Source of the DNA: Candidatus Poribacteria bacterium | GTDB taxonomy: Bacteria; Poribacteria; WGA-4E; WGA-3G | DNA: 64,000 nucleotides | Reading direction: 5' to 3' | Assembly (NCBI GenBank): GCA_964291315.2 | Contig: OZ219750.1 | Span: forward strand, 224,001-288,000 | In this document: positions 42,387-48,892 of the stretch, one piece after another | Layout of the letters: every line of letters starts with the position of its first letter | Numbering within the stretch: the first letter of the stretch is position 1 | Program-made: the position numbers and the translations under genes | The notes under the pieces: model-generated | What the model was told of the DNA's origin: nothing | Databases searched by the model: none | Seen by the model: only the letters and a program-made list of their open reading frames with translations

Positions 42387-44930
<2,544 letters not shown>

Positions 44931-45139: not shown

Positions 45140-45622
45140 TCAAGGCTTATCTGTGCTTTGTGCCATGAATAGCTGCCGAAGCGATTTTTTCAATCTTTCG
45201 TCTGTTACGCTGGCGAGGATCTGCTCAATCTGCTCTAATTTTTCGGCAGTTGTACGATCAGGCGTAGCAGTGGTAGACGACTTGGGCGATTCGTGTTGGA
45301 TTGTTTCGTCAGAAGGTGTTGCAGTGCTCACCAGACGTAACTCTATCCGGAGATCCGTGAGGATGGGTTGATCTAGCTCTGCGTTCAGATTTGCTATAAT
45401 ACTTTCTTTGTGGAGTAAGATCTCTGTCTTATAAGGTGGATATTCAGTGTAGATTTTTAGGACTCCTTCCGAAAGCGACATAGGCATGGTCTTTGTACCA
45501 AAGGGGATGCCAAGGTGTTTCCGCCAAAGGTCAAAGACTCTCTGCTCAAGTATCTTAGGTTCCATGTCACTTTTCCGAATAATTTCTGTTAGGATGTTTC
45601 GTAGTTGCTCTGTTTTCCGCAT
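45140..45622 (-). CDS. dciA: DUF721/DciA-family protein
   Basis: W...G......T.P..L..GVL.I pattern and the recF-X-gyrB position. Confidence 0.75.
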   Translation of the reverse strand: MRKTEQLRNILTEIIRKSDMEPKILEQRVFDLWRKHLGIPFGTKTMPMSLSEGVLKIYTEYPPYKTEILLHKESIIANLNAELDQPILTDLRIELRLVSTATPSDETIQHESPKSSTTATPDRTTAEKLEQIEQILASVTDERLKKSLRQLFMAQSTDKP

Positions 45623-45640: not shown

Positions 45641-47020
45641 TTATTGTTGTAAGTAGTTTGCGTGACTGATCCGGGCGTTCTTGACGGTTAGGATGTTGGG
45701 TTTATGGAGGTGATGTACGATCGGTTCTGCATGTGTTGCTGTGATGAAGGTCTGTGCACTCAGGTTTTGGAGGACATCCAACAGATAACCTATACGTTTA
45801 TAATCTAATTCCGACGTAACATCATCGAGGAGCACAATCGGATTTCTGCCTGTTGCTGCACGAATCAATTCTAATTCCGCTAGTTTGAGTGCCAATGCAA
45901 TAGTCCGTTGTTGCCCCTGTGATCCATAAGCACGTGCAACTTCTCTGCGCGTTCCGATTTCCTCATTTTGGCATTGGTATCGTTGTTGAACTGACACAAC
46001 TTTTGTAGCTGGAAGTTGCGTCGGTTTATTTGTCCTGTCTTCGGTATTGTCAAAGGTTTCTGCTTCGTTCTCGCTTAAAAAAGTAGAAAGATAGTTCTCC
46101 AATTCAATCAAAAAATCGTCGCGGTGCGGTCCAACTAGTGTTGTCCCCCGTTGTAGGTCTGCGGGGCGTGAAGCGCTTAACATCTCACTAAATTGTGCTG
46201 TAATCTCGCTTTCGCTTGTCATCCGAACCGAACCAACTTCAGACTCAGCCAATGAATTCATGTCTGTAGATTTGAGTTCGGACTTACTATTTTTTGTCCT
46301 ATTCATTGATATATCGTTCTGTATTGATATTGAGGCAGAGCGATATGTCAACGCTAGACTTTCCTGCCCGCCCGTAAGTTTCTTATAGTTGTTCACAACG
46401 TATTTTTTTAACTCGTGAAATACTTCTAAGCGTTTTATCGTGATGCCGGTGCCATGTGTGAGCAAAAGTTTGTCCCAAGCATCTAACTGTACTGTATCCG
46501 CGAAAGTTGTACGAATCTGCTTTAGTAGTTCGTTCCGTTGTTTGAGAACTGATCTATAATTCTGCAGATGTTGTAGATAATCGCTATCAATCTGAGCGAT
46601 CATCAAGTCCAAAAATCTCCTGCGCTCGGCTGGGGCCCCTTTCACTAATATTAGAGATTCCGGGGCGAAGAATACTACGTTAAACTGCCCAATCCATTCA
46701 GAGCGTTTTGCATGAAGGATGCCGTTTTTTTTCAATTTAAATTGCCCGCGGGCCCGCTTCGATGCCTCTAGAGATAGTACATCATCGCTACTGTTTGTTA
46801 ACACCCCTTTCAGGTAAAAACCGGGTTCGTTGTGCCGAATTAGCTCAGCATCTCGTGTGGCACGGTGGGATTCAGCAGTACAAAGAAAATAGATGGCTTC
46901 GAGCAAATTTGTTTTGCCTTGGGCGTTTCCACCGATGAGCAGGTTAACCGGCTCGGAAAAGCTAACTTCACAATTGACATAGTTACGGAAATTACGCAGG
47001 ATAATGTTGTTTAATAGCAT
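45641..47020 (-). CDS. recF: DNA replication/repair protein RecF (with insertions)
   Basis: NFRNY, G.NAQGKTNLLEAI, GPHRDD, GSQGQQR, LLDDV.SELD. Confidence 0.96.
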   Translation of the reverse strand: MLLNNIILRNFRNYVNCEVSFSEPVNLLIGGNAQGKTNLLEAIYFLCTAESHRATRDAELIRHNEPGFYLKGVLTNSSDDVLSLEASKRARGQFKLKKNGILHAKRSEWIGQFNVVFFAPESLILVKGAPAERRRFLDLMIAQIDSDYLQHLQNYRSVLKQRNELLKQIRTTFADTVQLDAWDKLLLTHGTGITIKRLEVFHELKKYVVNNYKKLTGGQESLALTYRSASISIQNDISMNRTKNSKSELKSTDMNSLAESEVGSVRMTSESEITAQFSEMLSASRPADLQRGTTLVGPHRDDFLIELENYLSTFLSENEAETFDNTEDRTNKPTQLPATKVVSVQQRYQCQNEEIGTRREVARAYGSQGQQRTIALALKLAELELIRAATGRNPIVLLDDVTSELDYKRIGYLLDVLQNLSAQTFITATHAEPIVHHLHKPNILTVKNARISHANYLQQ

Positions 47021-47124
47021 TGATTTTCGGGGTGCAAAAAATTGTTCGTTGTTTTTGAGCTGGATGTGTAAGTAAAATATTTCATCCTTGTTAACTTATT
47101 AACTTGTTTGCGCCTTTTCCTAAT

Positions 47125-47400
47125 TGTACTATTCTCAATATATATATGTACTTATAAGAAGCTAGTAACAGTAGTAGGGGCTGTGGATAAGTGCATAACT
47201 CTCTTAAACCCTTATGGCCATGATAATTGCCTGTTGATAACTTGTGCATAACTTTCCGAGTTATGCACAAGTTATCAACAACATTTCCCAGTCTCCGAGT
47301 TATGCACAAGTTATGCACAAGTTATGCACATTATTTCATATAGTTATGCACAAGTTATGCACATTATTTCATATAGTTATGCACAAGTTATGCACACTTT
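47125..47400. promoter_or_regulatory. Chromosomal replication origin oriC (DnaA-box array, DnaA-trios, AT-rich DUE)
   Basis: TGTGGATAA at 47182; nine TTATGCACA (47243 reverse, 47261, 47300, 47311, 47322, 47344, 47355, 47377, 47388); two TTATCAACA. Minus strand TTATCCACA-GCCCC-TACTACTGTTACTAG then an AT-rich tract. Lies directly downstream of dnaA. Confidence 0.92.
47309..47396 (+). repeat. 33-bp tandem repeat (2.7 copies) AGTTATGCACAAGTTATGCACATTATTTCATAT
   Basis: Exact copies at 47309-47341 and 47342-47374; partial copy at 47375-47396. Confidence 0.95.
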
Positions 47401-47512
47401 TTTACAAGGTTAGCAGACAATTCAGGTTAAAAAACGCGAACGTTAGTAAAGTAAAAAAATAAAGCATTGGAATTGGCATCTGTGGTTGGTGCGTGCAAAA
47501 CTTTAAAATTGA

Positions 47513-48892
47513 TTAGCGGAACAGATCGAGGAGTATCGTAATTACTTGCCGTTCCTCGTCACTTTCATCCATTATTTTTTCTATTTGCTTACATGCGTGA
47601 ATGACAGTCGTATGGTTTTCCCTGTTAAAGGCTTGTGCGATATTTGCATAGGACATTTGCGTTAGTTCTCTGCAGAGGTACATAGCGATTTGACGGGGTT
47701 GTACCAATTCCTTGGTTCGCTTGTGAGACACGAGGTCGATTGCTTCGATACCAAAATAATCGGCAACAGATGTTTGTATTCCTTTTAATGTAGCGGATTT
47801 CCGCTGTTGTGATGAGTAGCTAGTGTTGACGTCCCCAAGGATCTGTCGAGCGAAATCTACGCTCAGGTTCTCCTTAAGTATTGAAGCTTGTGCCATAAGG
47901 CGAACGAGGGTTCCTTCGAGTTCGCGTATATTAGTTGTGACGACTTCGGCGATGTAGCTGAGTACTTCATTAGGGAGATGATTCATTCCTTGGTCTTGAC
48001 ATTTTTGTTGGAGGATGGCGATTCGCAGCTCATATTGTGGTTTATCAATTTCAGCGACCATACCCCATTCGAAGCGCGAACGCAGGCGTTCTTTGACGTT
48101 TTCCAGGTTTCTAGGTGGTCGGTCGCTGGTCATAACTATCTGGTTTGAGTTGGTATGTAGGTCATTGAAGGTATTGAAGAATTCATCTTGTGTTCCCTCT
48201 TTTCGTTCTAGGAATTGTATATCGTCGATGAGGAGCATGTCGGCGGTGCGATATTTTGTCCGGAAACCTTGTGCTGATGTTCGGTTGACGATAGATTCTA
48301 CATATTCATTCATGAAAGTTTCTGAGGTAACGTACAGCACTTTCTTTTCTGGCTGATTCGCTGAAAGCCGGTTGCCGATTGCGTGCAGCAAATGTGTCTT
48401 GCCTAGACCTACTTCACCATAGATAAAAAGTGGATTATAGTCGCCTCCAGGGTTTTCTGATACAGCTAATGCGGTTGCATGACATACTCGGTTGCCGAAG
48501 CCGACGACGAATCTATCAAATCGATAATTTGGGTTGAGACCAGTTTGTTCTTGTCGCGTTAGCGTGAGAGTGTTTTTGATCGGGGTGTTCCTTGAGTTGC
48601 TCGATGTTTCGTTCTGCGTTTCATCTGGTTCTTGATGCTCATGAGAAATTGATTCGTCTACAATGAGGGTAAGAGCGCATTGGGTGCCGATCAATGTGCT
48701 TAGGACCCGTTGAATATTGGTGCGAAATCGTTCCTCTATCCTGGTCCGCGTGTAGGTTGAAGGAACAGCTATCTTCAAGGCTTCTTTTGTAACTGAGATC
48801 GGAACTGCTTGATGGAGATAGACATCCTGCTGTGCTGCATCGCTGAGTTTTTCTAGTATTTCTAACCAAATTTCGTTTGGAGTCTGCCGCAT
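47513..48892 (-). CDS. dnaA: Chromosomal replication initiator DnaA
   Basis: YNPLFIYG.VGLGKTHL, LLIDDIQF, RLRSRFEWG, NIRELEG, PRQIAMYL, HTTVIHA. Confidence 0.98.
   Translation of the reverse strand: MRQTPNEIWLEILEKLSDAAQQDVYLHQAVPISVTKEALKIAVPSTYTRTRIEERFRTNIQRVLSTLIGTQCALTLIVDESISHEHQEPDETQNETSSNSRNTPIKNTLTLTRQEQTGLNPNYRFDRFVVGFGNRVCHATALAVSENPGGDYNPLFIYGEVGLGKTHLLHAIGNRLSANQPEKKVLYVTSETFMNEYVESIVNRTSAQGFRTKYRTADMLLIDDIQFLERKEGTQDEFFNTFNDLHTNSNQIVMTSDRPPRNLENVKERLRSRFEWGMVAEIDKPQYELRIAILQQKCQDQGMNHLPNEVLSYIAEVVTTNIRELEGTLVRLMAQASILKENLSVDFARQILGDVNTSYSSQQRKSATLKGIQTSVADYFGIEAIDLVSHKRTKELVQPRQIAMYLCRELTQMSYANIAQAFNRENHTTVIHACKQIEKIMDESDEERQVITILLDLFR

Follow-up and report, generated by a model that had tools for sequence, protein, structure and literature searches.

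The spacer of 492 bp that separates dnaA from recF (47021-47512) in the window, i.e., of the whole 64-kb stretch of DNA that was analyzed, contains a phased array of DnaA boxes next to a perfect inverted repeat, and this raises the question whether the locus is a chromosomal origin of replication and whether its geometry differs from that of known origins. The host is an uncultured sponge-associated Candidatus Poribacteria; the relatives of its DnaA protein (56 loci, 62-83% identity) place the organism in this group. A full-text literature search for Poribacteria together with oriC returned, as judged from its listing, no paper on a Poribacteria origin. Our analysis leads us to conclude that the locus is a genuine chromosomal oriC and that it is of a kind already known from other bacteria, which allows a confident, element-by-element annotation of an origin for an uncultured candidate phylum. 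Within this known origin type, the use of G-variant boxes and a perfectly symmetrical palindrome are details at the level of the lineage.

All genes around the spacer are located on the minus strand in the order gyrB, DciA-domain gene, recF, spacer, dnaA. The dnaA gene (47513..48892, 459 aa), which is transcribed towards the origin, contains the Pfam domains Bac_DnaA and Bac_DnaA_C and scores 494.2 bits with TIGR00362 (cut-off 343.9). The recF gene (45641..47020, 459 aa) was identified with the NCBIfam model TIGR00611 (335.6 bits, cut-off 172), the DciA/DUF721 gene (45140..45622) with Pfam DciA and gyrB (42387..44924) with the Pfam gyrase B domains. The RecF protein exceeds the 339-position TIGR00611 model by about 90-100 aa, and the model matches in two stretches, which suggests that this RecF carries an insertion. 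The classical neighborhood is dnaA-dnaN-recF-gyrB, with dnaN usually downstream of the origin. Here dnaN is missing from the origin neighborhood and recF occupies its usual place. Two tandem dnaN copies (382 and 378 aa, both above the Pfam cut-off) are present on another contig (C4:2846517-2848206).

Two open reading frames in the spacer, 47091-47318 on the minus and 47244-47462 on the plus strand, were rejected as non-coding; both cross box repeats whose number shifts the sequence by 11, 33 or 44 bp among the relatives. An RNA gene in the spacer was rejected as well, the only matches being sub-threshold microRNA-hairpin matches to the palindrome (at most 28.9 bits compared with gathering cut-offs of at least 51.8). 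A scan for promoters and terminators gave one promoter-like and one terminator-like site, with no excess over shuffled sequences.

When DnaA boxes were counted with at most one mismatch to the consensus TTATNCACA, the locus turned out to be the densest box cluster of the 4.4-Mb genome, which consists of four contigs: 13 boxes are found here within 400 bp versus 5 at the runner-up. An oriC is generally marked by the chromosome's densest box cluster being next to a replication gene, and here this gene is dnaA. The exact sequence TTATGCACA occurs nine times in the 64-kb window with 0.71 matches expected, at least nine matches being reached in none of 100 shuffles; genome-wide, nine of its 35 copies are located at this locus. 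The cluster lies downstream of dnaA and away from its promoter. Upstream of dnaA no box cluster was found, since all 56 loci (56/56) have either no or one box within 700 bp.

Read along the plus strand, the spacer contains an AT-rich element (47127-47162), five DnaA-trios (47163-47177), the tetranucleotide GGGC, a pair of boxes (47182-47198), a linker of 33 nt, a four-box palindrome (47232-47280), 19 nt of spacer and finally seven TTATGCACA boxes (47300-47396). The four boxes on the AT-rich side of the palindrome center are on the minus strand and the nine boxes beyond it on the plus strand. An initial annotation of this DNA had placed the origin at 47232..47396. This interval does comprise the DnaA-box part, but the functional core at 47127-47198 with the unwinding module and the AT-rich element was left outside. 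Taken as a whole, it is very likely that an oriC fills the dnaA-recF spacer, that the stretch at 47232..47396 is its DnaA-binding part and that the array has been built up by duplication of units; DnaA would assemble here in two arms.

The basal unwinding system is defined, according to excerpts of PMC8287927 and PMC6669920, by at least three consecutive trios of the 3′-GAT-5′ type with a central A, situated at most 16 bp from a DnaA box. At the locus we find five such trios on the plus strand (TAG TAA CAG TAG TAG, 47163..47177; central A, 3′-GAT-5′ type), followed by the GGGC spacer (47178..47181) and by the box pair on the minus strand (47182..47198), which consists of a perfect TTATCCACA (47182-47190) and of TTATGCACT with one mismatch (47190-47198). 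The perfect box reads TGTGGATAA on the plus strand, and the second box overlaps it by 1 nt, the distance being 8 nt from start to start. On the other side of the trios the AT-rich element (TACTATTCTCAATATATATATGTACTTATA..., 47127..47162) is the likeliest site of duplex opening. It contains the least stable 30-mer of the region 46900-47650 (47127-47156, -28.0 kcal/mol, calculated with nearest-neighbor parameters), which belongs to the top 0.02% of all 30-mers of the window. A near-consensus box, a spacer of 4 nt, five trios and, in the AT-rich region, the least stable 30-mer thus lie in direct succession, and the search rule for an unwinding module identifies this site.

This part of the origin is conserved. 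In an alignment of 49 loci the trio region of the relatives appears as CCCCTACTACTACTACTAA / CTACTACTACTACTA, the motif GAGTTATCCACTTATC[CA]ACAG is kept, and so is the linker from the palindrome to the module boxes (47199..47231), which is the reverse complement of ..AAGGGTTTAAG... Beyond the AT-rich element the relatives show a conserved TTAGTA..A.TA.TAG motif and then a reverse-oriented TGTGGATAA box. Most relatives keep such a far-side box; it is degenerate or lost in the window (47100-47125) and in L001, L002 and L009.

For the comparison of the complete locus we fetched 56 Poribacteria loci, 53 of which have enough downstream DNA and three of which are too short; together with the window 54 loci were assessed. 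The window and every one of the 53 relatives that could be assessed (53/53) have the phased array, the four-box palindrome and the unwinding module in the same order. The designation as oriC in the initial annotation is hence borne out by the adjacency to dnaA, the unique box cluster, the adjacent trio module with the AT-rich element and the preservation of this layout. Starting from dnaA, the conserved order is the stop codon, a spacer of about 60-120 nt, 3-9 co-oriented boxes, a step of 28 or 39 bp, the four-box palindrome, the linker, GAGTTATCCACTTATC[CA]ACAGCCCCTACTACTACTACTAA, a ATATATAT-rich stretch and usually one more box. In four of five closed relatives every 11-bp-spaced TTAT[C/G]CACA pair of the whole genome is situated at this locus; the fifth has TTATCAACA boxes, which are outside the scope of this pattern.

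The seven co-oriented TTATGCACA boxes that had been noticed before were all recovered by exact search on the plus strand, with starts at 47300, 47311, 47322, 47344, 47355, 47377 and 47388. They constitute the arm far from the unwinding site (47300..47396) and are arranged in groups of 3+2+2, with 11 bp within and 22 bp between the groups. Two further exact copies are the inner boxes of the palindrome (47261 on the plus and 47243 on the minus strand). Tandem Repeats Finder reports a 33-bp unit in 2.7 copies at 47309-47396 with 100% matches as well as an 11-bp period in 9.0 copies at 47298-47396. The palindrome is out of register with the array, the step from the outer box of its right arm (47272) to the first array box (47300) being 28 bp.

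The near-exclusive use of TTATGCACA had been regarded as a special property of this origin. However, sister lineages fill the same slots with TTATCCACA or TTATCAACA, and position 5 of the box is the free position of the consensus TTATNCACA. The box type depends on the lineage and varies rather little within one genome; the boxes counted on the minus strand (arrays and left palindrome arm) comprise 167 TTATCCACA, 161 TTATCAACA and 80 TTATGCACA. A shifted specificity of DnaA was rejected as the reason for these G-variant boxes. In all three box-type groups the recognition stretch of DnaA domain IV has the invariant residues HTT, and the residues surrounding them (consensus NHTTVIHAC) hardly vary, so that the G-variant boxes are no sign of a changed specificity. 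A motif containing TTATGCACA was also found by MEME in the predicted oriC of Yersinia pestis, as stated in an excerpt of PMC10225481. A recent tandem duplication of box-plus-spacer units can explain why the TTATGCACA boxes of this genome are so uniform and so exactly phased.

Nor did the phasing prove to be unusual or iteron-like. The distance of 11 bp from start to start is the array spacing of the Escherichia coli oriC, according to an excerpt of PMC6727663, and it recurs in other phyla. The array boxes of the relatives come in groups of two or three with 11 bp from start to start, and over the 54 loci 232 of 373 neighbor spacings are exactly 11 bp. The array size among the relatives is 3-9 boxes, and none of the 54 loci is without an array. 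Between the groups strict multiples of 11 bp had been claimed, but these are not conserved: the relatives show gaps of 22 bp (n=19), 23 bp (n=30) and 21 bp (n=15). Because many relatives have group gaps of 21 or 23 bp, one continuous filament that is in register throughout is not a conserved requirement.

The perfect inverted repeat was confirmed both in the sequence and by the repeat finder. Its arms (47232-47253 and 47259-47280) are complementary at 22/22 positions and separated by 5 nt. The left arm carries TTATCAACA and TTATGCACA on the minus strand and the right arm the same two boxes on the plus strand, and the center of this four-box palindrome (47232..47280) is the point at which the box orientation reverses. 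Each of the 54 assessed loci has a palindrome whose arms are complementary at 17-22 of 22 positions; perfect arms are confined to four loci, namely the window, L011, L032 and L046. In an alignment of the palindromes (55 rows, 44 of them distinct) 90.5% of the cells pair, and the arm-to-arm covariation score is 0.100 versus 0.048 in shuffles, a value reached by none of 500 shuffles. The columns that covary are those for positions 5 and 6 of the boxes and for the dinucleotide of the spacer, all of which track the box type used genome-wide at the origin. Unpaired nucleotides are found in 18 of the 44 distinct rows at the spacer column and in 30 of them at the innermost pair. Since relatedness and repeat homogenization account for the positions linked to the box type, the covariation needs no hairpin. 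Judging from these alignments, the conserved feature of the palindrome appears to be the reversal of the box orientation rather than a selected hairpin.

The suggestion that the box copy number could vary held up in the comparison with the relatives, with their 3-9 array boxes and their independent recent duplications, and also in the contig depths, which fit a variant with an extra unit. Of the 54 arrays, that of the window contains the longest exact self-match (55 nt at shift 33). Locus L034, with nine boxes versus six in its sisters, has a self-match of 54 nt at shift 44, and L035 one of 46 nt at shift 44. Because such long exact self-matches are found in separate loci, units consisting of a spacer and two or three boxes have been duplicated recently and independently. 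With their 3-9 boxes, three box variants and 33- and 44-bp duplications these origins form a natural series for the effect of the box number on initiation.

For the copy number at the read level we made use of two public runs, which consist of short contigs only; these break inside the repeat, and no record spans it. In run X1 the flanks have depths of 1003 and 995, the 55-nt repeat piece has a depth of 2000 and a 36-nt piece one of 1400. The depth of the 55-nt piece relative to the flank (2000 vs 1003) corresponds to two occurrences as in the assembly. At the right-hand junction two variants are present in this run, one with a depth of 600 as assembled and one with a depth of 400 and a C>T exchange at 47370. 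The exchange is located in the second repeat spacer, accounts for 400 of 1000 in depth and is absent from the other run. A model with about 60% of the cells as assembled and about 40% with one extra T-bearing 33-bp unit predicts the depths 2000 and 1400; a model with a variant of the same length predicts 1600 and 1000. Judging from these contig depths, the C>T exchange probably marks a coexisting strain with one more 33-bp unit, and the copy number probably varies within one sample. We consider it conceivable, but rather doubtful, that the unit number is polymorphic in natural populations and works as an evolvable dial for the DnaA initiation threshold, with the retained duplications being multiples of 11 bp. 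The contigs of both runs moreover show an extra T after 47220 at full depth (1003/1003 and 3311.5/3311.5), which may reflect a 1-bp mistake in the assembly or a linker that differs between strains. As assembled, palindrome and module boxes are separated by a step of 42 bp, which becomes 43 bp with the extra T; in the relatives it is 43-44 bp.

Several known systems resemble this origin in part. In Bacillus subtilis, incC is an oriC of the dnaA-dnaN type with a basal unwinding system (Richardson 2016; Pelliciari 2021, as cited in the excerpts of PMC8287927 and PMC6669920). The locus is like this system in having a box pair, a short GC spacer, 3′-GAT-5′ trios and an AT-rich region directly downstream of dnaA. 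Unlike in B. subtilis, recF instead of dnaN is located downstream, the module boxes overlap by 1 nt and there is no cluster upstream of dnaA.

As to E. coli, each half of its oriC comprises four sites 2 bp apart, and the DnaA oligomers on the two halves are oppositely oriented (Rozgaja 2011; Noguchi 2015; excerpt of PMC6727663). In the E. coli K-12 record R1 and R5M are on the minus strand beside the side of the AT-rich 13-mers, and R2 and R4 are on the plus strand. Both origins share the 11-bp start-to-start spacing within groups and the opposed near and far boxes, whose polarity with respect to the AT-rich side agrees: in the window as well as in E. coli K-12 the near-side boxes read TGTGGATAA on the strand on which the unwinding element is 5′. 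Unlike the low-affinity sites for ATP-DnaA in E. coli, the arrayed sites here match by sequence the consensus of strong boxes, and for this reason an ordered ATP-dependent filling is not to be assumed. The far arm is longer, with nine boxes versus four near the unwinding element, and is built of recent tandem units, and the point of reversal is a tight four-box palindrome instead of the single central R2 box.

Closely spaced arrays of R-boxes, proposed to favor DnaA-ATP oligomers, are also described for the oriC of Thermus thermophilus and Aquifex aeolicus (excerpt of PMC6727663); the likeness in consensus-type boxes and tight arrays is one by description only, and the hosts here are mesophilic sponge symbionts and not thermophiles. 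With plasmid iterons the locus has in common phased direct repeats of variable number. Unlike in iterons, the core of the repeat is the chromosomal DnaA box, the neighbors are dnaA, recF, the DciA-domain gene and gyrB, and there is no adjacent Rep gene.

The analysis shows which elements are present, in what order and with what polarity, and that they are conserved; from this we infer how DnaA could occupy the origin, open it and use the far arm. Domain IV of DnaA would bind each 9-mer box, and the gaps of 2 bp would allow AAA+ contacts between neighboring protomers, so that two oppositely oriented DnaA oligomers could assemble. Starting at the box pair, the near-side oligomer would spread to the trios on one of the strands and open the AT-rich element at 47127-47162. 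The far arm, i.e., the seven-box array, would stabilize the complex and probably aid the loading of the helicase. The array would grow and shrink through tandem gain or loss of box-plus-spacer units, which have 33 bp here and 44 bp in a relative.

The GC skew was of little help in this genome. No skew switch was found at the locus (C1:271 kb); the cumulative skew climbs across the entire 650-kb contig C1, where the plus-strand skew is positive for the genes of both strands (0.087 for plus-strand and 0.040 for minus-strand genes). Contig C4 has at least five sign changes of the skew at 200-kb resolution, and is strongly skewed in blocks around 0.6-1.0 Mb and 1.8-2.0 Mb. On the largest contig the skew reaches its minimum at about C4:2.69 Mb, a place without a box cluster, and in the 16 kb of the dnaN region no box cluster was found but eight scattered boxes. 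A second origin near dnaN or at the C4 skew minimum was rejected, there being no box cluster at either place. In the closed relatives G001 and G004 (40 samples of 20 kb each) the skew is weak or multiphasic; in G001 dnaA is situated at the end of one negative skew run and the overall minimum lies elsewhere. As the skew is multiphasic in this genome and weak or multiphasic in the two closed relatives, we take it as uninformative and not as contrary to our assignment. Because GC skew is unreliable in this phylum, the signature of boxes and trios is the practical means to locate its origins.

One could still suppose that the active origin is situated elsewhere, e.g., at a GC-skew minimum, and that the cluster beside dnaA is a relic or an autoregulatory site. 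The missing skew switch on a contig that is G-rich on the plus strand throughout and the relocation of dnaN would fit this supposition. We nevertheless regard it as highly improbable, since the runner-up cluster has five boxes versus 13, the 16 kb around dnaN offer only scattered boxes, the complete unwinding module with the AT-rich element is conserved across the phylum, the cluster is downstream of dnaA and not at the dnaA promoter, and the skew of the phylum is multiphasic anyway. That the number of 33-bp repeats is an artefact of the assembly is extremely unlikely. Indeed the repeat is bridged by none of the contigs in the two public runs, but the depth of the repeat piece, 2000 versus 1003 for the flanks, equals the two assembled occurrences, and independently assembled relatives, many of them with closed chromosomes, carry homologous unit arrays.

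The function of single elements could also be a different one. In the manner of datA or of the Bacillus clusters the array might mainly titrate DnaA or regulate its availability, buffering free DnaA with the unit number setting the threshold. Such a role is suggested by the variation between species from 3 to 9 boxes while the palindrome and the unwinding module are fixed, by the recent and independent duplications of units, by contig depths compatible with an extra-unit variant within one sample and by the consensus-type boxes, which are strong by sequence. A datA-like cluster is, however, separate from the origin, whereas the start of this array is 19 bp away from the palindrome and about 110 bp away from the module boxes. 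Moreover its orientation is fixed, as is the offset of 28 or 39 bp in 50 of 54 loci, it is present at all loci assessed, and an opposed far arm at the same position is integral to the E. coli oriC, all of which makes titration as the main role unlikely. As to the palindrome, its dyad symmetry could itself act by extruding a cruciform under negative supercoiling or by binding a dimeric regulator, and in this way gate the firing of the origin. The palindrome of the window does give a stable fold as single-stranded DNA (22-bp stem, -23.6 kcal/mol, z = -12.5), the arms are largely complementary at every one of the 54 loci (17-22/22), and the covariation extends to the spacer dinucleotide outside the boxes (0.100 vs 0.048 shuffled, 0/500). 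But perfect arms are limited to four of 54 loci, the spacer position and the innermost pair are unpaired in 18 and 30 of the 44 rows, respectively, all positions of the arms except four spacer nucleotides fall within DnaA boxes, and the covarying positions follow the origin-wide box type of the genome. A role of the symmetry as such is therefore very unlikely.

The reading that we prefer, an oriC on which DnaA would assemble in two arms, can be compared with loci from other groups. A scan for the four-box palindrome in one genome per species, covering 185,579 species, gave 73 stretches. Poribacteria or Poribacteria-like organisms account for 54 of the 73 (two records named 'uncultured bacterium' were assigned by contig or MAG identity), and 19 come from other groups. 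By eye, the full layout with arrays, palindrome, box pair and CTACTAC trios is present in five loci of Spirochaetaceae/Sphaerochaetaceae, six of Chloroflexota and one of Lachnospiraceae, and a partial layout at dnaA or dnaN in three loci (Bacilli, a Tenericutes MAG, Clostridium perfringens); the matches in Paenibacillus, Verrucomicrobiales and Gracilibacillus look like unrelated chance. The loci of Lachnospiraceae, Bacilli, Tenericutes and Spirochaetes carry, again as judged by eye, the same unwinding module beside dnaN. A Pfam run on 15 ORF fragments from ten of the 19 non-Poribacteria loci found dnaN or dnaA domains in eight of the ten: the N-terminal domain of dnaN in seven loci, three of which also have the C-terminal domain of DnaA, and the N-terminal and ATPase domains of DnaA in one further locus. 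In the three Chloroflexota loci tested with Pfam the neighboring gene gave, instead of dnaN, only PHP-domain matches below the cut-off. The recurrence of the blueprint in distant phyla supports the two-armed DnaA complex of E. coli as a general design. The blueprint is nearly identical in the Spirochaetes loci L165, L175, L194, L164 and L167 and in the Chloroflexota loci L179, L189, L201, L203, L207 and L210, and the Chloroflexota loci use TTATCAACA-type boxes throughout.
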